Shown: positions 1 to 45,025 of the stretch, piece by piece
Numbering within the stretch: position 1 is the stretch's first letter
Layout of the letters: each line of letters begins with the position of its first letter
Source of the DNA: Promethearchaeota archaeon
Lineage (GTDB): Archaea > Asgardarchaeota > Lokiarchaeia > Sigyniarchaeales > SOKP01
Direction of reading: 5' to 3'
Assembly (NCBI GenBank): GCA_048938895.1
Contig: JBHLLU010000004.1
Span: 1,721 to 65,720 of the forward strand
Length of the DNA stretch: 64,000 nucleotides
Position numbers and translations under genes: made by a program
Notes under the pieces: model-generated
Seen by the model: the letters and a program-made list of their open reading frames with translations, nothing else
Told to the model about the DNA's origin: nothing
Databases searched by the model: none

Positions 1-1
1 A

Positions 2-3607: not shown

Positions 3608-3655
3608 ATAAATAACAATAAAATTCAAATTTTTATTTTCCTTTTTCTTTTTTTA

Positions 3656-4285: not shown

Positions 4286-4318
4286 TTTGATAATGATTAT
4301 TTAACTAATTTATTAAAA

Positions 4319-10352: not shown

Positions 10353-10364
10353 TTTTTTTTTTTT
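10353..10364 (+). terminator. Oligo-T tract (T12) after the transglutaminase-like gene, abutting the convergent GTPase gene stop
   Basis: T12 on the plus strand 18 nt after the stop at 10335. It overlaps the TAA (minus strand) of 10363..11829. Confidence 0.4.
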
Positions 10365-16043: not shown

Positions 16044-17018
16044 TTATCTATATAAGATCTCTTTCAATATATTAGCAAATGTTTCAAAATCTTCTTTTTG
16101 AAAAACCGGGTCATCTTTGAGCAATAATAGATAATAAGGAGTCGAATCTTTTTTCAAGGTGATCTGTTTAAAAATGAAATTCTTTCCAAACCTTTGAAGA
16201 ATCATTCTATCTTCATATCTACTTTCTTGTACACCTGTATATTGTAGAGAATCAGAAAGAGTAAGGAAATATGGAGTTGAAGCTGAAAGTAAATGTTTAG
16301 TTTCATCATTTTTATAATAGGACCCAATAACAAGGGAGTTATCATCAATAACAACTACACCTTCAGAATCTATTTTCTTGGCAAATTCCAGTATAGTCTT
16401 CTCAATCAATTCTGATTTGGGATAGAGACTAAGCATAATTTCCGACATTGCTCGTATGATGGAACTAAAATCATAAATCGAGGTTTCATAAAAGTAAAGT
16501 TCTTTATAATCGGTAGCTTTCTTTACCTGCTCTTTTAAATCTATACTAAGATCTCGCATTTCATTTGGGGCACCTCTTCTTAAAGCAGGATCAAATTTGT
16601 GAAGGAAAATATAGATAGGTGGTTCAATTTCTAATTCTCTGAACTGATCAATAACATCTTTAAAATAACTCATTGCTTCCGGGATTCGAGGCTTATTTTG
16701 AACATCGATAACATAGATAGCAATTTCAGTACCATCAAAAAACTTACCTGGATTCTTTAAATAAGATATTCTATAACTAATTTGTCCCCCTAGATCCCAT
16801 TCTGCAATTTCTTTCCCTAGAAAATCAAAAACTCTCCTTTGGGCACCCCTAGTGGGTGAGAGCACTGCAATCTTCGAAAATTCTCTCTGAAGAGAAAGGA
16901 TAATGCTAGTCTTTCCTGCATCGTCAAGTCCCGTGAATAAAAGCTTAGATGGCTCTGGTTTCTGTTCTTGTTCTTCCTTTTTCAGATACAATATTGATTG
17001 TTTTAGATCCTTCTCCAA
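16044..17018 (-). CDS. Arf/Rag(Gtr)-like small GTPase with C-terminal roadblock-like domain
   Basis: G1 FTGLDDAGKTSII, PTRGA, G3 EWDLGGQISYR, G4-like LHKFDP. C-terminus: SEGVVVIDDNSLVIGSYYKNDE...YYLLLLKD. TTG start, with an in-frame TGA 4 codons upstream. Confidence 0.7.
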   Translation of the reverse strand: MEKDLKQSILYLKKEEQEQKPEPSKLLFTGLDDAGKTSIILSLQREFSKIAVLSPTRGAQRRVFDFLGKEIAEWDLGGQISYRISYLKNPGKFFDGTEIAIYVIDVQNKPRIPEAMSYFKDVIDQFRELEIEPPIYIFLHKFDPALRRGAPNEMRDLSIDLKEQVKKATDYKELYFYETSIYDFSSIIRAMSEIMLSLYPKSELIEKTILEFAKKIDSEGVVVIDDNSLVIGSYYKNDETKHLLSASTPYFLTLSDSLQYTGVQESRYEDRMILQRFGKNFIFKQITLKKDSTPYYLLLLKDDPVFQKEDFETFANILKEILYR

Positions 17019-31177: not shown

Positions 31178-31888
31178 TTGGCTTTAAAATTTAATGGTTG
31201 GATTGATGGGATTACAGCCTCAGGAGTGGTATTGTTAGGGATTATCTTTGGTCTTTTTTTTATATACAGATCAAGGAAATCAGGAGCAAAGCTTCTTTCA
31301 TATCTAGGTTTAGCAAATATGCTCGCAGGTTTAATGTTCTTAGGAGTGTTTATTGATTTTTTGTTAGTTTTAATTACAGAACATAATATAGATAATAACG
31401 GAATTGTAGCTATACTTTCTTATATTTGGTTTGCCCCCGTAATAATTACATCTATGTATATAGGTGCATTGCTTCTTACCCCAAAAATTAAACTTCATAT
31501 AGTCATAATTTTTGTGATTATTTCAATAGCATTTGAAATCATAATCTTTATTGACCCTTTAACCTCATTTAATTTTATCCCTGAACCTCCTACATCCCCA
31601 GATAGATTATTAATCGACTATAATGTCAATTTACTCACATTAGCAGGAATATTGATGGGGGGATTATTATTGCCTGTTCTCATATTTCTCGGTTTTGGGT
31701 TTCTAATTAAAGGATTAAAAACTTCAGGTGTGATTCGCAAAAATTTCTTATATTTATCGGCAGGTTCTATATGTTTTTGCATATTTGGATTGCTAGAGGG
31801 GTTGACAGTTCCTGGATTTCTAGTTATAATAGTGAGGATTGGATACCTTAGTTCTTTTTGGCTTATGTATCTAGGTTTAAAAGATTAA
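31178..31888 (+). CDS. Seven-TM membrane protein (paralogue of the membrane domain of 37967..39007)
   Basis: About 7 hydrophobic segments. Blocks shared with the 37967 protein: FIYRSRKSGAKLLSYLGLANMLAGLMFLGVFIDFLLVLITEHN, IAFEIIIFIDPLTSFNF, KTSGVIRKNFLYLSAGSI, VRIGYLSSFWLMYLGLK. TTG start. Confidence 0.6.
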   Translation: MALKFNGWIDGITASGVVLLGIIFGLFFIYRSRKSGAKLLSYLGLANMLAGLMFLGVFIDFLLVLITEHNIDNNGIVAILSYIWFAPVIITSMYIGALLLTPKIKLHIVIIFVIISIAFEIIIFIDPLTSFNFIPEPPTSPDRLLIDYNVNLLTLAGILMGGLLLPVLIFLGFGFLIKGLKTSGVIRKNFLYLSAGSICFCIFGLLEGLTVPGFLVIIVRIGYLSSFWLMYLGLKD

Positions 31889-31891
31889 ATC

Positions 31892-31902
31892 TTTTTTTTT
31901 TT
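31892..31902 (+). terminator. Oligo-T tract (T11) 4 nt after the stop of 31178..31888
   Basis: T11 on the coding strand directly after the TAA. Archaeal termination commonly uses oligo-T. Confidence 0.4.
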
Positions 31903-31991
31903 ATACCGATTATTATTTATACTACAATTATTTATTATTAGTTAAATCCTCAAAAATAACTATTGTATTTGATTAATATTCGTTCAGTATT

Positions 31992-33032
31992 ATGGAGAGA
32001 CAAATAATTAAAGCTATTATATATAATAGTTTAGATGAAGAAGTAGGGCCTAATCCTAAGGCTTATTTCCCAGAAGATTTCTCTCAATTAGATTTACTTC
32101 ATATTAGTGTTAAAACCTTTGCTGTTCTTACTGGTGAGAAGGGTTTTATCCCACAATCTGTTGTTATTTTGCCATTTCCATCCCTACAACTAAAAGGATT
32201 GATTAAATATATTCAATGGGAAGATCCAGATAAACGTGGGGGGATTGGACAAGCAAATATAACTTTATTATTTCAGGAAATGGATGATGTAATTTTTTAT
32301 AAGTATGTAAAAGAGCTCTCAGCCCCTTTCGGAGATATAGCTCAAAATATATCCTTTTTAGAAAAATCAGGCGCACCTAAAGAACAATACATTACTGAAT
32401 TACACAATCTTAAAAATGCAATTTTAGAACTTCTTGAAGTATATAGACAGAAAGAACTAGAAGCATCGAAAATTGAAGCTCTAACTGGGCAAATTACAGA
32501 TCGAAGCATGATTGATTATCAATTTAAGATAATCGTAGTAGGGGATCCTACAGTGGGAAAAACAAGTTTAATTTTAAGATATACTGATAATGCCTTTAGA
32601 AGATCATATGTATCCACTTTAGGTGTTCATGTTTCGAACAAAATTTTTAAAACTGAAGATTCAACAATTATTCAACTCGTGCTTTGGGATGTAGGGGGAC
32701 AAGAAAGGTTTAAACTCATGAGACAACAGTTTTACCAAGGATCTGATGCTATATTTCTAGTTTTTGATTTAACAAATCCGGAGTCTTTTGGTAATATTCC
32801 AATCTGGTATTCTGAAATTAAAAAATATATAAAAACTCCAGAAGAAGAACTAGAAGGTTTTATTATTGGGAATAAAAAAGATTTGGAAGAGAGAAAAATT
32901 ACTAGTGAAAGTGCTCAAAAATTAGCTGAACAGTTTAATTTAAAGTATCTTGAGACATCTGCACTATCAGGAGAAAATGTTGATTATGCTTTTACTACCC
33001 TCGCTAAAAACCTCTTTGAATCGAGAGTATAA
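31992..33032 (+). CDS. Longin-like N-domain fused to Rab/Ras-like small GTPase
   Basis: G1 VVGDPTVGKTS, switch I YVSTLGV, G3 LWDVGGQERF, G4 GNKKDL, G5 ETSALSGENV. N-domain: IIKAIIYNSLDEEVGPNPKAYFP...VVILPFPSLQLKGLIKYIQWED. No C-terminal Cys. Confidence 0.75.
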   Translation: MERQIIKAIIYNSLDEEVGPNPKAYFPEDFSQLDLLHISVKTFAVLTGEKGFIPQSVVILPFPSLQLKGLIKYIQWEDPDKRGGIGQANITLLFQEMDDVIFYKYVKELSAPFGDIAQNISFLEKSGAPKEQYITELHNLKNAILELLEVYRQKELEASKIEALTGQITDRSMIDYQFKIIVVGDPTVGKTSLILRYTDNAFRRSYVSTLGVHVSNKIFKTEDSTIIQLVLWDVGGQERFKLMRQQFYQGSDAIFLVFDLTNPESFGNIPIWYSEIKKYIKTPEEELEGFIIGNKKDLEERKITSESAQKLAEQFNLKYLETSALSGENVDYAFTTLAKNLFESRV

Positions 33033-33073
33033 AATACATTTGCTAACTTAGATTTTTACAACAACAGGAGATC

Positions 33074-33082
33074 TTTTTTTTT
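33074..33082 (+). terminator. Oligo-T tract (T9) downstream of 31992..33032
   Basis: A T9 run 42 nt after the stop codon, on the coding strand. Confidence 0.35.
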
Positions 33083-33115
33083 CTAAAAATTCTTCATATC
33101 ATATCTTTAGAGAGA

Positions 33116-33137
33116 TCGTGAAAGCCTTGTTTCACGA
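33116..33137 (+). other. Intergenic hairpin (8-bp stem, 6-nt loop)
   Basis: TCGTGAAA gccttg TTTCACGA in the 231-nt spacer between the two longin-Rab genes. Confidence 0.3.
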
Positions 33138-33263
33138 ACTTTCGAGCAAAGTTAATAGACAATTAAGGGCAAATAGTTTTTAAAATTTTAATAATTATTA
33201 TTCAAAAAAGAACTCAAATTACTACTGTTAAACCATTAACTATTTGAGCCCATAAGCTGTCTT

Positions 33264-34289
33264 ATGTCTGAAGAGATAATCAAAGCAATCGTGTACACTT
33301 CGCTTGATGAGTCAATTGGTCCTAATCCTCTTCTATGGATCCCACTTGATTTATCAGAAAAGATTCGAATGGGAGTAGGTATTAAAACCATTACCATGCT
33401 CACCACGGATCAAGGCATCGTACCTAATTCTTTAGTAATTGTACCCTTTCCGGCATTAAAATTAAAAGGTATTATCAAATATATTGAAAGAGAAGACTAT
33501 TCTCGACGAGGAGGAGTTGCATTATCTTCTCTTGCACTACTTTTTGGTGAAGCCGATGATCTGATTTTTTATAAATATATGGAGTATCTTGAACCTGTTT
33601 TCTCAGAAACTTCGAAAAGAGTTGTTGAATTAGAAAATGAAAAAACAAAAAGTGATGAGATTTTTGTTGAATTAGATAAATTCCGTCAAAAACTAACAGA
33701 AATTTTAGATGATTTATACAAAAAAGAGAAGTCAAACTCAGAATTAGAAGCTTTTCCTGAAGAAGAGATTAAAGATGATTTATTAGAATCTAATTTCAAA
33801 ATTATTGTATGCGGAGATCCTGGCGTAGGGAAGACAAGTACTGTTCTACGACTTACAAACAATGCTTTTATGCGTACTTATGTTCCTACATTAGGAGTAA
33901 GTATATCAGAACGGTTTATGATGTTAGGAGATAAGCCTATTAATCTAATTCTTTGGGATATTGCAGGTCAAAGTAAATTTGAGATAATGCGTCGTCACTT
34001 CTATAAAGGTACAGATGCGGTTATTCTTATCTTTGATCTTACTAGCCGAAAATCATTTGAAAGTGTTTCTAATTGGTTTAAGGATATAAGAAGATATGAA
34101 AATAACGTAATTGGTATTATTTTTGGAAATAAAGAAGATCTACAGGATAAGCGAATTATCTCTTTAGAAGAAGCCTTGGAGAAGGCAGAAAGTCTAAATC
34201 TAGAATATGTTGAAACCTCTGCTTTAACAGGTAAAAATATTGAAGATAGTTTCTATAAAGTGGCTGAAACTTTATTCAAACCAAGATAA
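33264..34289 (+). CDS. Longin-like N-domain fused to Rab/Ras-like small GTPase (tandem paralogue)
   Basis: G1 VCGDPGVGKTS, YVPTLGV, G3 LWDIAGQSKF, G4 GNKEDL, G5 ETSALTGKNI. N-domain: IIKAIVYTSLDESIGPNPLLWIP...LVIVPFPALKLKGIIKYIERED. Confidence 0.75.
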   Translation: MSEEIIKAIVYTSLDESIGPNPLLWIPLDLSEKIRMGVGIKTITMLTTDQGIVPNSLVIVPFPALKLKGIIKYIEREDYSRRGGVALSSLALLFGEADDLIFYKYMEYLEPVFSETSKRVVELENEKTKSDEIFVELDKFRQKLTEILDDLYKKEKSNSELEAFPEEEIKDDLLESNFKIIVCGDPGVGKTSTVLRLTNNAFMRTYVPTLGVSISERFMMLGDKPINLILWDIAGQSKFEIMRRHFYKGTDAVILIFDLTSRKSFESVSNWFKDIRRYENNVIGIIFGNKEDLQDKRIISLEEALEKAESLNLEYVETSALTGKNIEDSFYKVAETLFKPR

Positions 34290-34294
34290 TTTCC

Positions 34295-35836
34295 TTAATT
34301 AAAAATATCAGAATCATTCCAGAAGAAGGCTTTTGATTTTAATTCGGCTTTTATCGGATATTTTATTTCTTGATATTTTTTATCTTCAACGGATAAATCT
34401 GTATTAGATACCCACCATTTTGACTTCTTAAGATCATTTCTACTGGGAATCCACTCCTTCCATATCTCAGGGAGCCATTGTTGTTCATAGAATACCATCA
34501 AATCTGTAAGATACTTTATTCTCTCCTCATCTTCAATCCATCTGCACATAGGATCGTGAAGCATCGCTTTATAAATAAGATCAATATCATTTCCTAGGGC
34601 TGCATCAACAGTTAGTCTTTGCTGTTTACAGTGTGGAAGTAATAATTCAGCGATGTGATTAGGGAGCTTGATTCCATCTAAGGGTGTAATCACCTTATTG
34701 TTAAAATAGGCGGGAATTTCAACAATGCAATCACTTGGAAGTTTATCTATAATCTTGTTTCCATTTATCTCATTTGGAATATTAACTGCATGCAAAGATT
34801 TGTCATTATCAAAAAAACTGAGAGTCATATCAATTACTCTTTCTAAACTAGGACCCCTTATGTAAAAATTTTTAGGATTATTCGTTTCCTTTATTTTTTC
34901 ATAGAAAATTCTGCGTGCATTACCAATACTAGATACATTTCTCACTTGGGGAAATTTCCAATATGATGTTTGAATTTTATAGTTAAAATAATTATAATAG
35001 TCCGGTAAAAATTCTGCTATATGACGAGAACCAGGATAAGGATAATAATTATACTTTTCTAGTAGGTGAAAATTAAATCCACCTCTGTAATCATTTACTG
35101 GAGCATTAAGATTTTTTAAGACAAATTTATGAGGGTTGGATCTTAATTTATCATAAAGATCATTTTGAGACAACCCTATTTCAGTCAACCAAGCAAAATG
35201 GTTCACTCCCGCATACTTAATATCGATTTCATGTAAATTTTTAATTTTTATACTATGGAATTTATTAAAATATTTTAAAACAGGGTTTATACCAAAATAA
35301 AGTTCATGGCAAAGTCCAACAAATTGAATATCTTTTGAAATAGTATTTGCTGCCATTACAATTGTAGATTGGGGATTAGTATAATTAAGTATCGGAGCTT
35401 TAGGACATAATTCCTTCATATCCCTTACAATTCCCATAACTATCGGAATTACCCGTAATCCACGGAAGAGTCCTCCAGGACCTACAGTATCCCCCGTATT
35501 CTGGGGAATTCCGAGTTTTAGAGGTAGATATATATCATACCATTCTGATTCTTGGGTTCCCACAGAAATTGACTTATATACTATATCAGCATTCTCGAGT
35601 ATATCACGATGATTAACTGAAGAGGTAATCTTAATATCACATTTAAATTTTTTATTAGCCTCAATTATTTTAATAAAATATTTTTTTATTAAATTCAATG
35701 ATTTTGCATTTATATCGCATAGTCCAACTTCTAATGGCAATGAATTATTTGCAGACAATAGTATTAAATCATTGAAAAAAGCTGTGGAAAATCGAAATGA
35801 ACCTGCTCCAATATATCCAATTTTAATCCGTTCCAT
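34295..35836 (-). CDS. Glycoside hydrolase family 4 (NAD-dependent alpha-glucosidase/galactosidase-like)
   Basis: IKIGYIGAGSFRFS Rossmann start, LNYTNPQS, VGLCHE, HFAWL. Confidence 0.7.
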   Translation of the reverse strand: MERIKIGYIGAGSFRFSTAFFNDLILLSANNSLPLEVGLCDINAKSLNLIKKYFIKIIEANKKFKCDIKITSSVNHRDILENADIVYKSISVGTQESEWYDIYLPLKLGIPQNTGDTVGPGGLFRGLRVIPIVMGIVRDMKELCPKAPILNYTNPQSTIVMAANTISKDIQFVGLCHELYFGINPVLKYFNKFHSIKIKNLHEIDIKYAGVNHFAWLTEIGLSQNDLYDKLRSNPHKFVLKNLNAPVNDYRGGFNFHLLEKYNYYPYPGSRHIAEFLPDYYNYFNYKIQTSYWKFPQVRNVSSIGNARRIFYEKIKETNNPKNFYIRGPSLERVIDMTLSFFDNDKSLHAVNIPNEINGNKIIDKLPSDCIVEIPAYFNNKVITPLDGIKLPNHIAELLLPHCKQQRLTVDAALGNDIDLIYKAMLHDPMCRWIEDEERIKYLTDLMVFYEQQWLPEIWKEWIPSRNDLKKSKWWVSNTDLSVEDKKYQEIKYPIKAELKSKAFFWNDSDIFN

Positions 35837-36018
35837 GTCCTATATATCCCCAATCGAGATTTCGGAAACCCCTCAGTTTTATTTAACTCTAATTTAACCC
35901 TTAAAAGTTCGCGTTATTTTTAAATTGTGTGTTATTCCAAGAAAATTTAGGTAGAAAGAAAGTTTTTATAAAATCAAAAAAATAATTATTAATTCATAAA
36001 ATAAAAATTGATACTAAA

Positions 36019-36594
36019 ATGGATTTAGAAGAAATTATCTACAAAAGAAGAACAATAAGAAGATTTAAGCAAAACCCAGTTTCAATGGAAATATTAGAAA
36101 AGTTAATTGATTTTGCTCGAGTTGCTCCAGTAGCGAGAAATGTTCAAGCTCTTGAGTTTATCATTATTGAAGATGCTGAAATAAGAAAGAAAGTATTTCC
36201 CTTAGTAAGGTGGGCTGCCTCCTTACCTGAAAATCAAAGAACTCCGGAAGAAGGAAGAGAACCTACGGCCTATATTGTAGTTTTAGTAAATAAAGATCTT
36301 AAAAATGTGTATGTGGATTTTGATGTAGGCGCTGCTGTTGAAAATATATTATTGGGTGCAGTAAGTTATGGAATTGGAGCATGTTGGATGGGAGCAATAA
36401 ACTTTAGGAAAATTAAAGCGCTTTTTGAGATCCCTGATAACTATGAAATAAAGCAGGTTATAAGTTTAGGGTATCCTGATGAAGAGTCAGTTATGGAACC
36501 TTTTAAGGATTCCTATACTTATTGGAAAGATTCAAACGGAAAGATGCATGTTCCTAAAAGGAGTTTAGATGATATTATCTTCAAGAAATATTAA
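36019..36594 (+). CDS. Nitroreductase-family protein
   Basis: RRTIRRFKQNPVS, ARVAPVARNVQ, GACWMG. Confidence 0.75.
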   Translation: MDLEEIIYKRRTIRRFKQNPVSMEILEKLIDFARVAPVARNVQALEFIIIEDAEIRKKVFPLVRWAASLPENQRTPEEGREPTAYIVVLVNKDLKNVYVDFDVGAAVENILLGAVSYGIGACWMGAINFRKIKALFEIPDNYEIKQVISLGYPDEESVMEPFKDSYTYWKDSNGKMHVPKRSLDDIIFKKY

Positions 36595-37481
36595 ATTAAT
36601 GCTGCCATATCTTTGCAATGTTTCGTAATTTGTACCATTACTTTAATTTTCTCGATATCATTAGAATCTAAATTACCCATAAAAGTGTTTGCTTGATCCA
36701 CTAGTAATTCTTTTTTTAACCATGAATTATGGGCTAATTCCAAATCTTTCTTAAGGTAAGCATTCATAACTTCATTAAAATATTGTTCAACCTCTTTGAA
36801 AAACTCCATGACATTTTCAGTGAGTCGTAAATCCCTTAAAATGACTCCAATGTCTTCTATTTTTTCACAAAACATACGTAAATCCATAGCTTCAAGTGGA
36901 GTAAAGTCAGTATCTTCTGTAACATAGATGCCTGTTCTAAGATAAGTTCTAATATGAATTACTAATATAAAATAAAATCTCTTAAGTTGTTGGAAGTTAT
37001 CATTCAACTCTTCAAAGTTTTCCTCCACTAAATTTTCAAACATATCCACTATCAAATATAATTGTCGTTGGATTAACCTTTTCGTTGGAATTGTCTTATA
37101 TCCAAAGTTTTGGATTACCATCCGTTGCCTTTGATCTTCAATGATTTCGGTATTAGGTAAACCTTTCACAAACCATTTAATTTCACTCTTTAAATCCTTA
37201 TCAATCTCCCTGTCTGAAATAACGGTGATATTAGTTTGTCCCGATAAACTGTGTTTTACAATTTCTCTAGGAACATAAGGACTAATTTGAAGTATTAATT
37301 CATCTTTTTGGGATATGTCTTCTTGAATTATTTTGGGTGAAATTAATAATGACCCATCATCTCGTATATCTATTCGAACAGGAGATTTACTTTCTAAATT
37401 GAAATTTTCAATCCAATTCTTAGGGAGACTTACGAAAAACGATCCACTGATCTTTTGAAGCTTTCGAAAAACACTTGACAT
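36591..37481 (-). CDS. AbrB/SpoVT-domain plus PhoU-domain regulator (archaeal phosphate-uptake-regulator-like)
   Basis: N-terminal SGSFFVSLPKNWIENFNL...PVRIDIRDDGSLLISP (AbrB-like swapped hairpin), followed by helical PhoU-like repeats. The stop codon overlaps the stop of 36019..36594. Confidence 0.55.
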   Translation of the reverse strand: MSSVFRKLQKISGSFFVSLPKNWIENFNLESKSPVRIDIRDDGSLLISPKIIQEDISQKDELILQISPYVPREIVKHSLSGQTNITVISDREIDKDLKSEIKWFVKGLPNTEIIEDQRQRMVIQNFGYKTIPTKRLIQRQLYLIVDMFENLVEENFEELNDNFQQLKRFYFILVIHIRTYLRTGIYVTEDTDFTPLEAMDLRMFCEKIEDIGVILRDLRLTENVMEFFKEVEQYFNEVMNAYLKKDLELAHNSWLKKELLVDQANTFMGNLDSNDIEKIKVMVQITKHCKDMAALI

Positions 37482-37637
37482 AAATAAAAAATGGTTGAGG
37501 TTTTATTTATATTTGTTTAATTTGTTTAATGTTTTTCATTCACCTTTAATATATTATACAGAACATTAATTAGTTCTTTAAACAATCTTAAAAATAATAA
37601 AAAAAAAATAAAAAAACAGTATGGAGGTAGATTTAAA

Positions 37638-37868
37638 ATGGCTGTAGGCAAAAAGAAAATAACCTCTGTGTTACTAGATTTTCCTAAATACAAAATATTA
37701 GATGAGATTGAAGAAAGTGTTAAAAAAGAAGTAAGTTTTTTCGGTACATTAGAAACTGATTCAGATCCTGTACAAATGAAAAGAAATGAAAGAAATTGGA
37801 AGCAATCAATTGGTTATTATCTTTTACATCCTGAAAAGTTCAAATTTGGGTTAAAAGATCTTAAATAA
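37638..37868 (+). CDS. Small hypothetical protein
   Basis: 76-aa ORF in an otherwise empty gap. No motif recognised. Confidence 0.3.
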   Translation: MAVGKKKITSVLLDFPKYKILDEIEESVKKEVSFFGTLETDSDPVQMKRNERNWKQSIGYYLLHPEKFKFGLKDLK

Positions 37869-37966
37869 ATATTTATTTTTTTTCTCTTTTTAAATTTAAA
37901 ATCAATCCATCAATTTTAAAAATAATTACCTTTTATTAACCTATAACGGAATCTATATAATATAAT

Positions 37967-39007
37967 GTGAATGATTTAATGCTTTTTCTATCTGTTTTAA
38001 GCGGGATTATTGGTTTAACTACATTAATTGTCCTCATAGCATTTTGTATTTCAGGAATATTATTTTATTATGTCTCAAGGAAGACAAATATAAAGCTTCT
38101 CTCTGTTATGGGAATATTTTTATTCTTCGCAGGAATTTGTTATCTTGGTATTTGTGTAGATTTCTTGACAATTATTCTAACAGGTCATAATACAACTAGG
38201 CTTATATTAGCGTACTTAATTTGGCCATTTGTTCCTATAGTTTATACACTAGGAACTTATGTCACATTTGAAATCTTAATACCTAAAAGAAAAATATACG
38301 GTATGGCAATATATATTATAATAGCCATAGTTTTTGAATTAAGCATTTTTTTAGACCCATTTGGGAACATTACTTTTGTTGTTACTAGTGATGAATTAAT
38401 TGATGATAGTCTTATCTCTGGATCTATAGCAGGAATGATAGGATCCTTTATGACTCTTTTTGGTATGTTTATTGCTATAATGGTGGTATATAAAGGTAAA
38501 AAAGCTTCTGGAGTAATTCGCAGAAAATATTATTTTTTGGCATTAGCATTTTTCATCGTCAATATATCCGCATTTTTAGATTTTATAGGAATAAGGGAGA
38601 TTGTAAGTTTTATAAGATTAGGATCTTTGAGTAGTATTTGGTTTTATTATTTAGGTTTAAGAAAAGAACCAGAAAAACGTGAAAAAAAAGAAAAGAGAGA
38701 GGAAGTAAAGATTGAGGACTCGTTATTTAGACTTACTAGAAGACCAGACCATATAACCGAAGAAGAAGTTACTTATTATAGAGAACAAAAAATTTGTCTA
38801 GTATGCAAAGGAAACGTTGGGGGCTTTAACAATTATATATGCACTGCTTGTGATGCCTTATATTGTGAAAACTGTGCACGTGCCTTATCAAATGCTGAAA
38901 ACGCTTGTTGGGTGTGTAATGAACCAATCGATAAATCTAAACCTTCAAAACCATTTAAAATTGCAGAAAAACCCAAAGAAATTGAAAAAGTTGGGAAAAA
39001 AAAATGA
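37967..39007 (+). CDS. Seven-TM membrane protein fused to a C-terminal C4C4 RING-like (binuclear treble-clef) zinc finger
   Basis: The membrane domain is paralogous to 31178..31888. A K/E-rich linker (EPEKREKKEKREE) follows, then CLVC-x11-CTAC-x4-CENC-x10-CWVC. GTG start at 37967; ATG at 37979. Confidence 0.65.
   Translation: MNDLMLFLSVLSGIIGLTTLIVLIAFCISGILFYYVSRKTNIKLLSVMGIFLFFAGICYLGICVDFLTIILTGHNTTRLILAYLIWPFVPIVYTLGTYVTFEILIPKRKIYGMAIYIIIAIVFELSIFLDPFGNITFVVTSDELIDDSLISGSIAGMIGSFMTLFGMFIAIMVVYKGKKASGVIRRKYYFLALAFFIVNISAFLDFIGIREIVSFIRLGSLSSIWFYYLGLRKEPEKREKKEKREEVKIEDSLFRLTRRPDHITEEEVTYYREQKICLVCKGNVGGFNNYICTACDALYCENCARALSNAENACWVCNEPIDKSKPSKPFKIAEKPKEIEKVGKKK
38795..38917 (+). other. 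Eight-cysteine RING/PHD-like finger coding segment
   Basis: C-x2-C-x11-C-x2-C-x4-C-x2-C-x10-C-x2-C, read directly from the translation (Cys277 to Cys317). Confidence 0.6.
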
Positions 39008-39030
39008 AAAATATGAAGAATTGAGTATTA

Positions 39031-39300
39031 ATGAGAATATCAGTTGAGGATACAAGAACAGGGAAAGTAATAAAGCTTGACGTCAGAGAACATCACCTTA
39101 TTGAACATATTATAGATATAGTTGTTAAGCATATGGGAATTATAACTGCGGAACAACGTTCCTATAATTTAGTACATAAACAACAAGAATTACCAAATTC
39201 AATAACTATTGAAGAAGCGATACACAAATATGGATTGCGAGAAGATGACAAATTATCTATGTGGGCTAGAGTCATAGGAGGTTTAGAATATAATTATTGA
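39031..39300 (+). CDS. Ubiquitin-like beta-grasp protein with internal Gly-Gly and 5-residue C-terminal tail
   Basis: MRISVEDTRTGKVIKLDVREHH...DDKLSMWARVIGG-LEYNY. The layout parallels ubiquitin (MQIFVKTLTGKTITLEV...LHLVLRLRGG). GG is encoded at 39277..39282. The gene starts 23 nt after the finger protein. Confidence 0.6.
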   Translation: MRISVEDTRTGKVIKLDVREHHLIEHIIDIVVKHMGIITAEQRSYNLVHKQQELPNSITIEEAIHKYGLREDDKLSMWARVIGGLEYNY

Positions 39301-39305
39301 ATAAA

Positions 39306-41891
39306 TTATCGCGTACTTTGAATATACTGTCTCCTTTTTTTCTGTTCCTTCTCCCATTTCTTACGTTCTGAACGAAGCTTAAATATGTCAACATCTTTAA
39401 AAATTATATTTTCCTCTTTGGGAGGGATTAACCTTTCGATCCTTTCCTTCTCTGGAGTATATATTAGCGATTCACCAAATTCAGCTACATTCACAAAAAA
39501 GCAATATGCATAAATCGATCGTCTAGCATCAAAATGAGCTGCTTTAAAATCAGCGGTAACAGGAGTAAACGCAGGATTGATAATAAAATCAATTGGGGGT
39601 TCAAAATTTTTCAATTCTACTCGTAAATCCATATCAAGAAAATCCCTACAAATAATTATTGCTATTCGACCGTATTCTGTATTACACACTATAGTTTTTC
39701 TAGGTAATATATTAACCTTAATGGATTCTTCAATTCTTTTACCTTCTATATGGATAAGCGCAGGAATATGTTTTTCTTGTTCCCAAACAATTCCTTCGGG
39801 TCCAACTACCATACTAATATTTTGGTTTGTTTCAAGATTGTGAAATGACCCTGGAATAATATACATATCATATAACTTTGCCTGGTTAGAAATTTCTTCT
39901 AAGAATTGACCAAAATTTAGATCAACTGTCATCTCAGGGAATATAAGGATATTTGCTTCATTTTCATGAGCTACCTTGATCATATTTTTGACTTTTTCAA
40001 GAATGATAGGTACTTTTTCTTCTCTTAATCCTAATAAACCTGAAGCTTTTTCTTCATAAAATTCATTTATCAAATCTCCCGACTCTGATAGTCCGATTTG
40101 GGCAATTGCTACTTTTACGTCTCTCTTTTGGATTTTTGGATATATTTCTAATAAATCATTGTAGATGAGTTTATATTTCTTCTTTTTAGTTCCCTTTTTT
40201 TCATCTTTTTCTTGAGAAATTGATGGAGTTAAAATATCTGAAGAAATAGTTGGTTCGCGTATCGTATCAAGAGCCGAGATTAATATTTTTTCTTCTTTTT
40301 CAACTAAAAGTAAACTATCTAAAACCTCTTTTTCTTTATCGTTATATCCTGCTAATCTGAAAAGTTCAGCTGCAGATTTCATTAATTCTAAGCCCAATTC
40401 TAAAAGTTTTTTCTTCTCATCAAGATTTAATTCTTCATCTGCTCTTATGATAAACCATGTACTATCGAAATATGTAGTAGTAGCTAGTGCCCAATCTGCT
40501 TCACTTTCGAAACCACCTCTTCGATAAGAGTTTGCAGCATTTCTAAGCATTGCTTTAATTTTGGGATATAATTCTGCTTTTTCTTTTGGATCATCTGACT
40601 TATCGAATTCTGAACCTAATCTTAAAGCCTGACAAAATGCAGCATTTCCTAAAGTCAAGGACTTTAGTTTAAGATCTTTAAATTTTTCACCTGCATTATT
40701 AAAGAAATCCACAGCTTCCATGTATTTATCTGGATTTTCACCCTCCTCGGCAAATTCCATGCATTCCCAACCTTTGCAGAGATAAAATAATGCATTTAAT
40801 TCTTTTCTATCCTTCTCATTCATTATATTTGAGCATAGATCCTTAAACTGAGTTGCTGCTTGAGAAAATTTTTCAGCTGCTAAAATACGGTTTCCTTGTT
40901 TCTCTAATAATCTAGCTTCATCTATCTGATCCCAAATTTTTGAATAATCTACTTTTACCTCAATTTGCTCTGGTGGTGATTCTATTTCAACAGGGGTAAT
41001 AGATTCTAAAGGTTTTTTCTCTAAGATGGACATTTGAATAATTTCAGTTAAAATTTGAATTATATTATCTTTTGAATCCTCATTATTTGCTGAAAACCTA
41101 TATGTTCTAGTATCAAACAGTTCCTCTATTTTTTCAGGTTCAAATGCCGATTCTATTAAATCCTGAAAGTTAGCGATAATAAAGAATTCTGCTTTCTCAA
41201 ATCGAGGTTTTAATTGTGAAATTAGTTTATGAGTTCTCCCTAAATTACTTGCTGCTGAGTTAGTTATAACTAAAACAATATCTGTTGATTTTAATAGAGA
41301 TTTATACAGGCTTGAGTTGTTAATTAATTCATTTAAATCAATTTCTCTCATAATGAATTGTTTTATCTCATAAAAATTAGGGAAATCAACAGGCTTCTGT
41401 ATTGTCTCAACTAAATCATCATCTAATTCAATTATTGTCTCTCCTGAAAAGAGATCCATTATGGTAGTTTTCCCAACTCCTTTTTCGCCTACCAACAATA
41501 TTTTGGGGGGAATAAAAATATTTTTCTCAACAAATTCATTAAAATCTTGAAAAATACTAATATTACCTGTCCAATTTTCTAAAAAGGGTTTATACCTTTT
41601 AATAAATTCGTTCTTCATTAATTCTAAATTAGGTCTAGCCTCTTCTTCCATATCATCTTTATCTATTACAACAACAAAAATACAGTCATATTCTAGTGAA
41701 TATGAATAAATAAAATTATAATTTTTAAAAATAAGAGCTTTAATTTCTCCAACTTTAATTTCTTTGGCAAAGCTATCTATTGCTGTGAGAAATCCACTAA
41801 TAATACTCTCGTCAATGTCAATTTGTTTAAAAAATTCCTTGGAATAACATAGAATACCACCTGGACCAATAATAAAAATTTTGTATATCAA
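39306..41891 (-). CDS. Multidomain protein: longin/roadblock-like N-domain, P-loop GTPase-like domain, helical TPR-like repeats, C-terminal carbon-nitrogen hydrolase (nitrilase-superfamily) domain
   Basis: N-terminus MIYKIFIIGPGGILCYSKEF..SGFLTAIDSFAKEI..ENWTG. P-loop LLVGEKGVGKTT, with NKxD degenerated to ANFQD. Helical repeats span about residues 330-540. The CN-hydrolase triad context is VKVAIAQIG, ILIFPE(653), EKH (K707) and AIIICRD (C748; TGT at 39648..39650). Confidence 0.65.
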   Translation of the reverse strand: MIYKIFIIGPGGILCYSKEFFKQIDIDESIISGFLTAIDSFAKEIKVGEIKALIFKNYNFIYSYSLEYDCIFVVVIDKDDMEEEARPNLELMKNEFIKRYKPFLENWTGNISIFQDFNEFVEKNIFIPPKILLVGEKGVGKTTIMDLFSGETIIELDDDLVETIQKPVDFPNFYEIKQFIMREIDLNELINNSSLYKSLLKSTDIVLVITNSAASNLGRTHKLISQLKPRFEKAEFFIIANFQDLIESAFEPEKIEELFDTRTYRFSANNEDSKDNIIQILTEIIQMSILEKKPLESITPVEIESPPEQIEVKVDYSKIWDQIDEARLLEKQGNRILAAEKFSQAATQFKDLCSNIMNEKDRKELNALFYLCKGWECMEFAEEGENPDKYMEAVDFFNNAGEKFKDLKLKSLTLGNAAFCQALRLGSEFDKSDDPKEKAELYPKIKAMLRNAANSYRRGGFESEADWALATTTYFDSTWFIIRADEELNLDEKKKLLELGLELMKSAAELFRLAGYNDKEKEVLDSLLLVEKEEKILISALDTIREPTISSDILTPSISQEKDEKKGTKKKKYKLIYNDLLEIYPKIQKRDVKVAIAQIGLSESGDLINEFYEEKASGLLGLREEKVPIILEKVKNMIKVAHENEANILIFPEMTVDLNFGQFLEEISNQAKLYDMYIIPGSFHNLETNQNISMVVGPEGIVWEQEKHIPALIHIEGKRIEESIKVNILPRKTIVCNTEYGRIAIIICRDFLDMDLRVELKNFEPPIDFIINPAFTPVTADFKAAHFDARRSIYAYCFFVNVAEFGESLIYTPEKERIERLIPPKEENIIFKDVDIFKLRSERKKWEKEQKKRRQYIQSTR

Positions 41892-41966
41892 TAGTGATCT
41901 CCCACCGTACTTATTTGTAATTAATTCAACAACATATATTAAAATTAATTAAAATGGTGAAGTTAT

Positions 41967-42536
41967 CTATTTAGAACCAGTTAATTCTTCATAAAGCGCT
42001 TTTGATTTATAATATAACTCATTAATTATGGCTAGAAAGCCATCATAAACTCTTTCTCCTGTTTTTGCTGAAGTTAAATAATACCCAATGAAGTTTTTTT
42101 TCTCTACTAATTTTTCAATTTTCTTGGTTTCTATTTGTTTTTTATCTACAAGATCGATTTTATTAGCAAATAATATAACAGGAATATCACCACAAAAATG
42201 CTTTAAGTCACTATACCAATGTGTAATGTTCTTGAAACTTTCTTTACCAAGAGAATTGTCTTCAAGAGAATATACAATTATTGCTGCACTACTATTTTTA
42301 TAAAAAGAAGGACGTAGAAAGTGAAACTCGTCTTGACCAGCAATATCCCAGAATACTAATTCACATTGATCATTTTCAATATCTTGTTTGTAATTTGAAA
42401 ATTGCGCTCCTATTGTTTTAATGTAATCCTTTTCAAAACTACCTTTTGTAAACTTCTTAATTAAACTAGTTTTCCCGACCATCCCATCTCCAATAACAGT
42501 AATCTTGTATTTATATTTGTCTTGACGCTTACTCAC
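41967..42536 (-). CDS. Rab/Ras-like small GTPase
   Basis: G1 VIGDGMVGKTS, YIKTIGAQF, G3 FWDIAGQDEF, G4 ANKIDL, G5 TSAKTGERV. No C-terminal Cys. It lies 75 nt upstream of 39306..41891 on the same strand. Confidence 0.8.
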   Translation of the reverse strand: MSKRQDKYKYKITVIGDGMVGKTSLIKKFTKGSFEKDYIKTIGAQFSNYKQDIENDQCELVFWDIAGQDEFHFLRPSFYKNSSAAIIVYSLEDNSLGKESFKNITHWYSDLKHFCGDIPVILFANKIDLVDKKQIETKKIEKLVEKKNFIGYYLTSAKTGERVYDGFLAIINELYYKSKALYEELTGSK

Positions 42537-42637: not shown

Positions 42638-43426
42638 ATGATTATAATGGTTGCAAAAATCGAGCAAAAAATGGAAGTATTATTTGGTTTGTTTGGAGTT
42701 TTGTTTGCATCAATTCTTCTAATAATAGCTATTTTTTTTACTCCCGGATATAGCCCTTTGCTTAAACCTGTAAGTTCATTGGGGAGAGGTGAAGCAAAAT
42801 CATTATTCAGTATAAGTTTTGTAGTCGCAGGTTCCTTAAGTATTCCATTTTTCATTTCTGTTGAAAGGGAATTAGTAAATATAAAAGAAAGTGTTCGGAG
42901 ACTAGCAACTGGAGTTTCAATATTTTCTTCAGTATGTATCGCTCTAGTAGGAATAATTCCAGATGAAACTTACATCGAATTATTTTTGATGTTTCATGGT
43001 TTTGTGGCATGGGTTAGTTTTATTGGTACTTGCTTTTATATAGATCTCTATAGTGTTTTGATGTATCAAGGCCCTAAATCAAAATTATATAATGGCCCAG
43101 ATTTTAAAAGATTTTTGTCATATTTTGGTTTTAGTATTACTTTTGTATTAATAGCTTTTTTGATCACACGTGAACCCTTGATCGAGTGGATTTTGACGAC
43201 TTCTATTATAGTTTGGATTCTAATTACTGCTATTCAGATGATATCATTCAAATTCTTTAACATTCCTGGTGTTTACTATAAACGAGCACAATTTCCAGAA
43301 GCACTCAAAATGTTTGAAAATGCAATGCAGATTTTAGATCGTCTTGATTTGAATCAAGAACCCATAACTGAGACTATTCAGGAAAATATAGAATTTCTGA
43401 AAAAGCAATTAGAGAGAGAAAAATAA
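42638..43426 (+). CDS. DUF998-like multi-TM membrane protein with helical cytoplasmic tail
   Basis: 6-7 hydrophobic segments with a VSSLGRGEAKSLFSISFVVAGSL motif like its neighbour. An alternative start lies at 42671. Confidence 0.4.
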   Translation: MIIMVAKIEQKMEVLFGLFGVLFASILLIIAIFFTPGYSPLLKPVSSLGRGEAKSLFSISFVVAGSLSIPFFISVERELVNIKESVRRLATGVSIFSSVCIALVGIIPDETYIELFLMFHGFVAWVSFIGTCFYIDLYSVLMYQGPKSKLYNGPDFKRFLSYFGFSITFVLIAFLITREPLIEWILTTSIIVWILITAIQMISFKFFNIPGVYYKRAQFPEALKMFENAMQILDRLDLNQEPITETIQENIEFLKKQLEREK

Positions 43427-43622: not shown

Positions 43623-44225
43623 ATGAAGCTTGATATAAAGTTAAAATGGCCAATAAGTTGTTATACGGGAATACTTGTAATATTATTGTATTGTATTTTT
43701 ACATTTACCTCCCTTGTATTATTTCCCCCTCCATTTAGTGCTTTTGATAATTGGCTGAGCGATTTAGGTAATTCGAGTTATAATCCAAATGGAGCAGTTT
43801 TATATAACCTTGGTTGCATCTTTACAGGCATAATGCTATTCCCCTTTTTTCTGGGATTAAATAAGTGGTACAAGGAAGATTTATGGCATAAAATTCTCTT
43901 GATAGTTATTCAAGGTATAGGATGCTTTTCAGGATTTGCCCTGATTATGATTGGCGTTTTCTCAGAAGATTTTGGGACCCCACATGTATTCTGGTCTGAT
44001 GTTTTTTTCGAGTTAAATCTTTTGGTTTTAATTCTTGCGTCAATAGCATTATATTTCCACCCCGAATTTATTAAATGGATTTCTATTTATGGAATTGTTG
44101 TTGCTGTAATCAATTTACTTTTCGTTTTCTTCTTAGGCACACCAATTTTAGAGTGGTTTACTGTTTTTACTGCTCTTGGTTATGTTGGGTTAATAGTTTT
44201 TAATATGCATCAGAAATTTCGATGA
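43623..44225 (+). CDS. DUF998-like multi-TM membrane protein
   Basis: WLSDLGNSSYNPNGAVLYNLGCIFTGIML is the pattern I associate with DUF998. Six hydrophobic segments. Confidence 0.45.
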   Translation: MKLDIKLKWPISCYTGILVILLYCIFTFTSLVLFPPPFSAFDNWLSDLGNSSYNPNGAVLYNLGCIFTGIMLFPFFLGLNKWYKEDLWHKILLIVIQGIGCFSGFALIMIGVFSEDFGTPHVFWSDVFFELNLLVLILASIALYFHPEFIKWISIYGIVVAVINLLFVFFLGTPILEWFTVFTALGYVGLIVFNMHQKFR

Positions 44226-44314: not shown

Positions 44315-45025
44315 TTATTCTCTTATATAATGATAAGCGCCACATCTTAGACATTGATAGCGATTATTATCTAATTCCTTAAAATTATTTTTTTCTTTAC
44401 AATTTGCACATATTTTATTTATAATTTCTTTTCCAGAAATATCTATTACTTTTGAGATTCTCATTAAAAATAATTTTTCAGGGATTTTGGTAGATTCATA
44501 TTCATCTAAAAAATGAGTTTTTATTAATGTCTCTTCAATTGTATTTAAAACTGCTATTCTTCTGTAATAAAACTCTTTTTTTTTTTCTTTTTTGTTCTTA
44601 AAAGGAGTGATTCTAAAGCCTATTGCTTTTATTTCAAATTGATGTTCATAGTTGAGTTCTATAGAATAGGATATATTCGTTAATGATTTCTTAATAGAAT
44701 AAGCCTTAATAATTGGGAAATTGTATTTGAATTTACCTAGTTCTTCATCAGAAAATGTTTCTCTCATTTCTCTGGTTATGGCCCATTTAATTGATTTTTC
44801 TTTTTCTTTTTCATCTAATGTAGCAAGAGCCATTAATGAAGCACCTAACAATCCTGCTATATTCCCTCCAAGGGAAATTGCAGCTGCATTCATTGGTATT
44901 CGCTTTATAGCACCTATCCCCCCAATTCTTAAATTTGTTAAAAGTAAATTTCCTTTAAATTCCTCCCCATATCTTTCTACCTTACCCTTAAAAGAGATTA
45001 CTAGATTTTCTCTTTCATCTTGCAT
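44315..45025 (-). CDS. Hypothetical protein: PH/GRAM-like N-terminus, C-terminal zinc ribbon
   Basis: FKGNLLLTNLRIGG resembles the G-x-L-x-L-T-x-x-R strand of bacterial PH/GRAM-like domains. C-terminus: CANCKEKNN...YQCLRCGAYHY. Confidence 0.35.
   Translation of the reverse strand: MQDERENLVISFKGKVERYGEEFKGNLLLTNLRIGGIGAIKRIPMNAAAISLGGNIAGLLGASLMALATLDEKEKEKSIKWAITREMRETFSDEELGKFKYNFPIIKAYSIKKSLTNISYSIELNYEHQFEIKAIGFRITPFKNKKEKKKEFYYRRIAVLNTIEETLIKTHFLDEYESTKIPEKLFLMRISKVIDISGKEIINKICANCKEKNNFKELDNNRYQCLRCGAYHYIRE

Follow-up and report, generated by a model that had tools for sequence, protein, structure and literature searches.

We analyzed a 64,000-nucleotide stretch of DNA from a Promethearchaeota archaeon (contig JBHLLU010000004.1, hereafter the window), in which a block of genes between positions 31178 and 42536 encodes seven-pass membrane proteins, small GTPases, a ubiquitin-like protein (Ubl), and an amidase. 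On balance, we favor the reading that this region is a ubiquitin neighborhood of Promethearchaeota (Lokiarchaeia-type), that its local E2-E1-JAB cassette has been lost, and that its machinery is, as we propose, associated with the membrane. The locus is apparently a cassette-less copy of the known Asgard ubiquitylation operon, accompanied by conserved accessory genes that appear to be undescribed. The window has a G+C content of ~30%, and its proteins are identical or near-identical to proteins encoded by metagenome-assembled genomes (MAGs) of Promethearchaeota (Lokiarchaeia-type Asgard). Its open reading frames (ORFs) between 31178 and 42536 are exactly those, with the same coordinates, given in a preliminary description of this DNA made from the sequence alone, and the domain calls of that description—two seven-transmembrane (7TM) paralogues, three Rab-like G domains, an amidase, a RING-like finger, and a Ubl—hold.

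The Ubl gene (39031..39300, plus strand) encodes a pro-ubiquitin-like protein of 89 aa with the C-terminus ...WARVIGG-LEYNY. Throughout the family, the motif WARV[IV]GG is invariant and is followed by 1–6 variable residues, and the family profile matches almost only ubiquitin, in register from TGK.I.L.V through the GG. The gene for a seven-pass protein with a C-terminal finger (7TM-RING; 37967..39007, plus strand) lies 23 bp 5′ of Ubl (27 bp between aligned ends). On the other side, the ends of Ubl and of an 861-aa longin-GTPase-amidase gene (big861; 39306..41891, minus strand) are 5 bp apart. This junction (39301..39305) is the site at which relatives carry ~2.2 kb of minus-strand sequence encoding E2, E1, and JAB, all three of which are absent here. 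The cassette proteins of one such relative (L009) match the Pfam models UQ_con (5e-11; E2), ThiF (1e-46; E1), and JAB (4e-11). The E2 is of the UBC type, bearing an HPN...Cys motif and matching Ubc13 and UbcH5 in the PDB; the E1, compact and of the ThiF family, contains CxxC pairs, and the JAB protein carries an H-x-H...S..D motif. We classify the window as an incomplete member of the archaeal E1/E2/RING operon, of which the related loci, taken as a family, are members. Because E2, E1, and JAB are absent from the window, the preliminary description could not see this operon and held that the gene combination could not be mapped to a described prokaryotic system; it does map to one, the archaeal E1/E2/RING/JAB operon (PMC5654768, PMC9192718).

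A scan with the 7TM-finger family, using one genome per species (GTDB), returned 43 loci, all from Promethearchaeota-type MAGs. As a second anchor, short longin-GTPase proteins were looked up on long contigs, with the finger protein left out of the search, and adjacencies were counted over 23 non-redundant Ubl loci and 21 loci containing JAB. The 5′ part of the recurring gene order reads PEP synthase, UPF0147, 7TM-1, longin-Rab A, longin-Rab B, nitroreductase, an AbrB-type gene (minus strand), and orf76; the 3′ part consists of one to three copies of the 7TM-finger gene, Ubl, the ~2.2-kb interval, big861 (minus strand), Ras189 (minus strand), and DUF998. A membrane finger protein is encoded 5′ of Ubl on the same strand in 22 of the 23 Ubl loci, within 500 bp in 19 of them, and in 20/23, with the E2-E1-JAB cassette present, E2 converges on Ubl within ~170 bp. 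All 21 JAB-containing loci have a longin-Arf-like GTPase gene directly 5′ of JAB on the same strand, with 15–91 bp between aligned ends; seven of these 21 came from the independent anchor and lie in wider surroundings unrelated to those of the window. The 21 include the unrelated surroundings of L049–L054 and L058–L060. The ubiquitin block stays intact through an inversion (L008) and between other flanks (L026, L031, L028, L029, L038, L041), and the finger protein accompanies Ubl into further contexts (L051, L058, L059). Co-localization of these families is far above chance. The preliminary description had proposed this comparison across genomes as a check, and its outcome is affirmative: in a large number of Promethearchaeota genomes, and despite inversions, splits, fusion, and fission, Ubl keeps the company of the membrane RING-type finger protein and of the longin-GTPase(-amidase).

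The 7TM-RING protein comprises a 7TM domain (~residues 1–235), an acidic linker, and a finger of eight Cys (residues 277–317; DNA ~38795–38917) arranged in a cross-brace pattern, C-x2-C-x11-C-x2-C-x4-C-x2-C-x10-C-x2-C. The linker that precedes the finger is conserved (EDSLFR..RP..ITEEEVTYY.EQK), and the 389 homologues of the protein have a constant length of ~345 aa. Matches of the finger in the PDB are mostly RING E3s or RING-like proteins, led by RNF113B (E=3e-4) and followed by TFIIH p44, Bre1, RNF4, and Mdm2. With the finger tail predicted to be cytoplasmic, 7TM-RING is a candidate membrane E3. The same linker and finger also terminate proteins whose ectodomains are FG-GAP beta-propellers or NosD-like beta-helices, as well as a second multi-pass family, and for this reason the finger appears, by sequence, to be a cytoplasmic module that various membrane proteins of these archaea carry as their tail.

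These other carriers of the finger deserve separate mention. The FG-GAP and beta-helix proteins are single-pass (L025 18252–20957, minus strand; L014 3397–4989, minus strand; L005 10954–12471, plus strand; L026 8695–10260, minus strand) and share the C-terminal linker and finger of 7TM-RING; they are often encoded no more than 10 kb from the ubiquitin block. The second multi-pass family (L041 4118–5314, plus strand; L044 2323–3513, plus strand; L051 10685–11770, minus strand) consists of proteins of ~360–400 aa with the same linker and finger, in which BLAST detected no similarity to the 7TM domain. Its members adjoin Ubl in L041 and L051.

On the far side of the junction, big861 can be divided into four minus-strand regions: a longin domain (residues 1–125; DNA 41517–41891), an Arf-like G domain (residues 126–295; DNA 41007–41516), a helical TPR/MIT-like region (residues ~300–600; DNA 40092–40991), and a CN hydrolase of the nitrilase superfamily with an intact Glu-Lys-Cys triad (residues ~601–861; DNA 39306–40091). 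We modeled residues 1–300 with AlphaFold2 (AF2) from an 83-sequence alignment (pLDDT 85, pTM 0.80), and the model places a longin fold of the order b-b-a-b-b-b-a-a before a small-GTPase fold; the longin elements are E2-8, E14-19, H28-44, E52-55, E58-65, E70-77, H82-105, and H111-124 (pLDDT ~72–97). The Longin model of Pfam matches weakly, in 7/22 family members, and Fuz_longin is also weak. Foldseek related the G domain to Arf, Arl, MglA, and Asgard ArfR1 (probability 1.0, TM up to 0.74). Weak MIT, TPR, and SNAP signals across residues ~300–600 make a helical repeat plausible for the middle region. The C-terminal domain scores 25.4 bits against the Pfam CN_hydrolase cutoff of 23.2; no other part of the protein is as conserved, and the FPE, EQEKH, and ICRD motifs of this domain, which supply the Glu, Lys, and Cys, are invariant in 14 orthologues.

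The longin-GTPase gene occurs in two forms, one of ~300 aa with longin and G domains only and one of ~870 aa (861 aa in the window). The ~300-aa form has 247 database homologues, which their sources label SAR1, Arf-like, or SR-beta. At L058 the helical-repeat/amidase part is separate, residing in 1,275-aa proteins that adjoin a unit of short longin-GTPase, JAB, E1, and E2, with Ubl and the 7TM-finger gene on the other side. This pattern of fusion in the window and fission at L058 links the amidase to the ubiquitin system. The L058 proteins are encoded in tandem (1–5514, minus strand), each ~1,275 aa long and composed of a long TPR-like N-terminal region followed by the helical "mid" region and the CN hydrolase known from big861 (45% and 70% identity), and their genes are divergent from the longin-GTPase-JAB-E1-E2 unit. 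Across the libraries searched, the amidase domain is best matched by the nitrilase domain of DRT1, a group of defense reverse transcriptases (PADLOC RTasNitrilase, 2e-11), a much better match than Pfam CN_hydrolase (1e-5) or the best solved structure (8e-4). A further paralogue of the Arf-like G domain, found at L038 (12818–13774, plus strand), has no longin domain and is fused to TIR_2 (Pfam 3e-15); its gene sits between the 7TM-RING gene and Ubl.

Several observations weigh against a membrane-associated, GTPase-coupled ubiquitylation system at this locus. None of the Pfam RING models reaches its cutoff with the finger, which also gives sub-threshold Pfam matches to C1, PHD, and B-box. The residue after its last Cys is Asn or Glu in the sequence, not the Arg or Lys "linchpin" that is typical after the last ligand of many active RINGs. 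The G domain of big861 conserves the P-loop and the NFQD specificity motif and has no DxxG, making GTP hydrolysis doubtful; the absence of DxxG suggests that the domain may bind nucleotide without conventional hydrolysis. A tblastn search with the L009 proteins found no homologue of E2, E1, or JAB anywhere in the 64-kb window. Collinearity, moreover, is general: PEP synthase and UPF0147 upstream and AsnC-type and other genes downstream are also conserved, and gene order by itself is weak evidence because housekeeping genes on both sides are collinear. Finally, in L046 and L047 a backbone of 7TM-1, longin-Rab, and nitroreductase genes runs on to Ras189 (minus strand) and DUF998 with no ubiquitin block between.

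The last two observations are what would be expected if the neighborhood reflected historical synteny, such that the functional unit were Ubl, E1, E2, JAB, and RING only, and the GTPases, 7TM-1, amidase, nitroreductase, and DUF998 mere neighbors, their proximity due to the collinearity of this part of the chromosome in related Promethearchaeota and to the abundance of genes of these kinds in Asgard genomes. PEP synthase, UPF0147, and the AsnC-type regulator do keep the same order, and ~120 kb of the complete MAG CP070831 separate 7TM-1 and longin-Rab A (L045) from longin-Rab B, nitroreductase, and the ubiquitin block (L011). It is also the case that GTPase genes of MK-D1 are generally found outside operons with their regulators (PMC10933270). 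Shared ancestry of the order does not, however, account for a longin-Arf-like GTPase that adjoins JAB in every one of the 21 loci, unrelated surroundings included, at operon-like spacing, nor for the fusion and fission of longin-GTPase and amidase or the membrane finger that follows Ubl to L051, L058, and L059. We therefore regard synteny as an unlikely explanation of the whole, one that explains the backbone and not the longin-GTPase/JAB/E1 unit. Because the backbone is intact without the block in L046 and L047, and the two are ~120 kb apart in CP070831, the ubiquitin block is a module separable from a conserved backbone, which has either gained it by insertion or lost it. At L022, longin-Rab B, nitroreductase, 7TM-finger, and a DUF998 paralogue occur in this order without Ubl, amidase, or Ras189. 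Given the genes that travel together, it is reasonable to see here, as the preliminary description did, a membrane-associated system in which Ubl modification is coupled to a GTPase-like switch; the idea of a single duplicated system finds partial support, since the backbone persists without the block and the region is not one obligatory unit.

It is conceivable that the block is an anti-virus or conflict system, a Ubl-conjugation module for defense akin to the Bil and CBASS Cap2/Cap3 systems of bacteria, in which RING proteins would serve as sensors at the membrane and the nitrilase as effector. The DRT1 nitrilase domain as best library match of the amidase (PADLOC, E=2e-11), the TIR-bearing GTPase paralogue of L038, the cassette-like pattern of presence and absence, and the attachment of the finger to varied, sensor-like extracytoplasmic domains (FG-GAP, beta-helix) would all fit such a role. 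Against this, PADLOC models yield no match for E2 or Ubl and nothing beyond generic domain matches for E1 and JAB; the E2 is of the eukaryotic UBC type, and E1 and E2 are encoded separately, in contrast to Cap2. Across many genomes, in addition, the proteins are 60–85% identical and reside in a stable, core-like neighborhood with no other defense genes nearby. Membership in the defense systems considered (Bil, CBASS Cap2/Cap3) is not supported by PADLOC profiles, and we hold a defensive function to be very unlikely.

The absence of the cassette raises a different possibility, namely that the window holds a decaying remnant whose Ubl, 7TM-RING, and amidase no longer serve conjugation after the loss of E1, E2, and JAB. 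The cassette is absent at the window, L055, and L010, and at L005 and L006, which lack Ubl as well. L055 is the closest available relative of the window (proteins 84–97% identical) and has the same cassette-less layout; the loss is common to a lineage that has since diverged. All genes are nonetheless intact. Between the window and L055, the Ubl gene differs by 9 synonymous versus 3 non-synonymous codons, and the corresponding counts are 101/86 for big861 and 18/6 for Ras189. Since synonymous differences exceed non-synonymous ones, selection on Ubl in the lineage without the cassette is purifying, as it is on the other genes, and this selection contradicts the relic reading. A related genome, H3B.172, couples a cassette-less 7TM-RING/big861 locus (L005) with a complete cassette on another contig (L059), and because of this precedent it is plausible that E1, E2, and JAB are supplied in trans in the genome of the window. 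We see little chance that the locus is a relic. In H3B.172, at L059 (4720–7943, plus strand), three tandem paralogues of the short longin-GTPase (323, 298, and 305 aa) lie 5′ of JAB-E1-E2.

The idea that Ubl and E1 form a sulfur-carrier pair of the ThiS/MoaD/SAMP type, rather than tag proteins, draws on the compact ThiF-family E1 with CxxC pairs as in MoeB, ThiF, and UbaA, but is scarcely credible, given a UBC-type E2 (HPN-Cys), a RING-type finger, and a JAB protease in the company of that E1, a Ubl profile that matches ubiquitin and not ThiS or MoaD, and no thiamine or molybdopterin genes nearby.

A ubiquitin neighborhood with an accessory membrane apparatus, the reading we prefer, can be set against several described systems. 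Operons of archaeal ubiquitin, E1, E2, small RING protein, and Rpn11 have already been described (PMC5654768), as has a discrete ubiquitin region, apart from the ESCRT genes, in Lokiarchaeota (PMC9192718). With these, exemplified by the Ub/E2/E1/srfp plus Rpn11 operon of Caldiarchaeum subterraneum and by the Asgard Ub clusters, the present loci share the clustering of a pro-ubiquitin whose tail extends past the GG, a ThiF E1, a UBC E2, a RING-type finger, and JAB/MPN+. They differ in that the finger here ends a membrane protein, seven-pass or of another kind, on its cytoplasmic side, whereas it is there a small soluble srfp; in that a longin-Arf-like GTPase is the constant first gene of JAB-E1-E2, often with a fused or adjacent TPR and nitrilase-fold amidase; and, for the window, in the lack of E1, E2, and JAB. 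Fusions of longin and GTPase domains are known from MK-D1 and other Asgard genomes (PMC10933270; 10.1101/2020.10.19.343400), and a Hodarchaeial cluster combines Yip1, a Rab-like GTPase, UEV-Vps23, and ubiquitin (10.1101/2023.07.25.550441). The latter resembles the region in co-encoding a multi-pass membrane protein, a Rab-like GTPase, and ubiquitin in an Asgard genome; its membrane protein is Yip1 in place of the 7TM family, it includes ESCRT-I, and it has neither a longin-GTPase/JAB/E1 unit nor an amidase. In the open-access literature we found no account of a longin-GTPase as a fixed member of a ubiquitin operon, of a nitrilase-fold partner, or of membrane-embedded finger E3 candidates, although earlier mention in the supplements of subscription papers is possible.

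Resemblances to other proteins can be set out by component. The general plan of 7TM-RING, a membrane-embedded or extracytoplasmic domain before a RING-type finger in the cytosol, recalls the multi-pass and receptor-like membrane RING E3 ligases of eukaryotes, such as Hrd1, MARCH, RNF43/ZNRF3, and PA-TM-RING, and would imply the modification of membrane proteins as a common task; no homology was detected in the transmembrane domains, the finger here is all-Cys (C4C4), and the E3 role is putative. The GTPases resemble longin/roadblock-GTPase pairs (Rag-Ragulator, FLCN-FNIP, SRalpha SRX-SRbeta, MglA-MglB) and the Asgard longin-GTPase fusions in that a longin domain precedes a small G domain of Arf-like or Rab-like type, and in occurring as tandem paralogues that could potentially heterodimerize. 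The G domain of big861 differs in its lack of DxxG, and we know of no member of those groups that shares an operon with ubiquitin enzymes or carries a fused amidase. The amidase domain has the Glu-Lys-Cys motifs and the CN_hydrolase Pfam match of nitrilase-superfamily amidases (Nta1, Nit/omega-amidases, Lnt, DRT1 nitrilase), but it is very divergent (best PDB match 8e-4) and forms one polypeptide with a longin-GTPase and helical repeats. Nta1, the N-terminal amidase of the N-degron pathway, sets a precedent for an enzyme of nitrilase fold that feeds into a ubiquitin pathway, and Lnt, of the same superfamily, performs acyl transfer through a Cys thioester.

From the conserved adjacencies and domain identities we infer a scheme in which the full system consists of two converging units, membrane-RING followed by pro-Ubl, and longin-Arf-like GTPase (alone or fused to the amidase) followed by JAB, E1, and E2. 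JAB would remove the residues past the Gly-Gly of Ubl, E1 would activate Ubl, and E2 would carry it; the cytoplasmic RING-type tail of the seven-pass protein would then bring E2~Ubl to the membrane, where the targets may be membrane or membrane-proximal proteins. Since it is constantly co-encoded with JAB, E1, and E2, the longin-GTPase is proposed to be a subunit or regulator of the ubiquitin machinery, and could act as a nucleotide-dependent adaptor or switch. The Cys-Glu-Lys amidase domain may contribute another chemistry at amide bonds, such as a deamidation like that of Nta1, or an amidase or transfer reaction on (iso)peptides. In the genome of the window, E1, E2, and JAB would act in trans from another locus. 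We propose this cascade on the grounds of homology with that of Caldiarchaeum, which has been reconstituted and in which JAB processing of pro-ubiquitin and an E1/E2/RING cascade have been shown (PMC5654768).

The backbone that adjoins the ubiquitin block begins with 7TM-1 (31178..31888, plus strand), a 236-aa seven-pass membrane protein without a finger that forms a backbone module with the longin-Rab genes. Its 440 homologues, the top 120 of which are at least 69% identical, are found in Promethearchaeota MAGs. 7TM-1 and the membrane domain of 7TM-RING are paralogues (35% identity over ~227 aa, E=7e-29), and hydropathy together with the positive-inside rule assigns to both seven transmembrane segments with the N-terminus out and the C-terminus in. 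The membrane domain of this family has no Pfam or NCBIfam match in any of 19 members, even at E≤1, and no profile match to HisKA_7TM or other known 7TM families was obtained; one source labels a homologue HisKA_7TM. In all nine loci with an orthologue (the window, L009, L013, L015, L025, L045, L046, L047, and L055), 7TM-1 is followed by longin-Rab A.

Longin-Rab A (31992..33032, plus strand; 346 aa) is composed of an FLCN/DENN-type longin domain (~residues 1–125), a helical linker, and a Rab-like G domain (179–341), and longin-Rab B (33264..34289, plus strand; 341 aa) is its tandem and full-length paralogue (43% identity, E=2e-106). Together with Ras189 (41967..42536, minus strand), a stand-alone Rab-like small GTPase with canonical G1–G5 motifs, they make up three Ras-family G domains, which match Pfam Ras at E=2e-47, 4e-46, and 2e-43 for A, B, and Ras189, respectively, and contain the motifs GxxxxGKT, T, DxxGQ, NKxD, and SA(K/L). 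Their C-termini (...FESRV, ...FKPR, and ...LTGSK) have no Cys for prenylation, and the three are therefore Rab-like and not Rab sensu stricto. The N-domain of the longin-Rabs belongs to a family of 138 representative clusters, mostly of the ~345-aa architecture. Earlier PDB profile searches with the N-domains of both longin-Rab and big861 gave no match; the deep profile of the longin-Rab family, however, matches PDB 8yqg, a "Longin domain" (E=4e-5), and Pfam Folliculin (Folliculin-N) matches 4/35 of its members (best E=1.2e-5), with Afi1, DENND11, and SMCR8 weaker. On the strength of these profile matches we assign the domain, by sequence, to the folliculin/DENN-type longins. An NPRL2-type longin was considered and rejected, the match having a probability of 3% over a 30-column N-terminal motif aligned with an approximate query sequence.

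Between the longin domains of longin-Rab and big861, hhalign found no detectable homology with either shallow or deep profiles, and with it we rejected a duplication of the module beyond the 7TM domain. The duplicated module of the preliminary description thus stands for the 7TM domain and falls for the rest, in which an FLCN-type longin with a Rab-like G domain faces a classical longin with an Arf-like one. The 7TM-1 protein, the two unprenylated longin-Rabs, and nitroreductase may constitute a separate but paralogous pair of membrane protein and GTPase. With its conserved K/R-rich cytoplasmic loops, 7TM-1 is a candidate membrane anchor for the unprenylated longin-Rabs, and longin-Rab A and B could heterodimerize through their longin domains, as the Rag GTPases do through roadblock domains.

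The preliminary description had counted four unrelated genes as interrupting the region, a view that holds for only one of them. The GH4 glycoside hydrolase gene (34295–35836, minus strand) lies outside the system and divides the longin-Rab B/nitroreductase pair of the window; it occurs in 0 related loci and, because it is absent from all of them, the closest relative L055 included, it is a recent insertion. The other three, nitroreductase, the AbrB/PhoU-like gene, and orf76, are conserved neighbors in related loci. Nitroreductase (36019..36594, plus strand) is a conserved partner directly 3′ of a longin-Rab gene in all relatives, across a gap of ~10–35 bp, and is present at ~70% identity in 13 scan loci as well as L046, L047, and L055. 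The next gene (36591..37481, minus strand) encodes a protein with an AbrB/MazE-type N-domain (Pfam MazE_antitoxin/SpoVT-AbrB, E=9e-8) and a helical C-terminal part, whose PhoU-like character no model confirmed; the protein is a probable regulator, and its gene is kept at this position in L003, L004, L009, L010, L014, L037, and L055. The conserved 76-aa protein orf76 (37638..37868, plus strand), to which no function is assigned, occurs in 10 scan loci, and lies directly 5′ of the 7TM-zinc finger (7TM-ZnF) gene on the same strand in L003, L004, L005, L009, L010, L011, L013, and L025; it may belong to the module.

Ras189, which the preliminary description had grouped with the amidase gene, pairs instead with the divergently oriented DUF998 gene (42638..43426, plus strand; Pfam E=9e-13), which encodes a multi-pass membrane protein. 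This divergent pair is present in L046 and L047, where no ubiquitin block is found, so Ras189 is part of the backbone and not specific to the block, and we rejected the idea that it is specifically paired with the amidase gene. In L028 and L029, copies resembling Ras189 are also found 5′ of 7TM-RING, and DUF998 was found in 11 scan loci plus L046, L047, and L055. A tandem paralogue of DUF998 follows in the window (43623–44225, plus strand; Pfam DUF998 E=6e-12). Just beyond it, a 236-aa ORF (44315–45025, minus strand) without a family match carries a C-terminal CxxC...CxxC motif resembling a zinc ribbon and was not found in related loci.

Elsewhere in the window, ~20 kb upstream of the locus, a 488-aa protein (10363–11829, minus strand) combines an FLCN-type longin N-domain with a Gtr1/RagA-type G domain (Pfam 1e-24) and so constitutes a longin-Rag-like fusion; hhalign aligned its N-domain with that of the longin-Rabs at a probability of 98.5%, and its Folliculin match is weak. 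A 324-aa Gtr1/RagA-like GTPase (Pfam 1e-25) is encoded at 16044–17018 (minus strand). Counting the Arf-like domain of big861, the window contains at least six genes of small-GTPase type.

Asgard genomes encode dozens of small GTPases each, almost none of which, to our knowledge, has an assignable partner. Surveys have placed most eukaryote-signature genes, GTPases included, outside conserved operons (10.1101/2020.10.19.343400; PMC10933270). A longin-GTPase that is the constant first gene of a JAB-E1-E2 unit provides one GTPase family with a concrete and testable set of partners, and two "eukaryote-like" systems, ubiquitin and longin-GTPases, whose genes were thought to lie dispersed over these genomes, are thereby linked at one locus. 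The membrane candidate E3s suggest that archaeal ubiquitylation takes place at the membrane in this lineage, with a bearing on the origin of ubiquitin-dependent sorting and of processes resembling endoplasmic-reticulum-associated degradation (ERAD), and the conserved amidase of nitrilase fold, which fusion and fission connect with the system, hints at chemistry yet to be explored. Every component is small and could be produced for reconstitution in vitro, as was done for Caldiarchaeum. We offer only tentatively, as a possibility, the fuller proposition that Lokiarchaeia run a GTPase-gated, membrane-embedded ubiquitylation with receptor-like membrane proteins (7TM, other multi-pass, FG-GAP, or beta-helix) that bear a RING finger in the cytosol, an obligatory longin-Arf-like GTPase subunit produced with JAB, E1, and E2, and a nitrilase-fold amidase as a new class of ubiquitin-pathway enzyme. 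If this were true, the amidase might be an N-degron-type deamidase or an isopeptide amidase or transferase, and the system would represent a prokaryotic forerunner of the coupling, in eukaryotes, between small-GTPase membrane identity and the ubiquitin-dependent sorting of membrane proteins.

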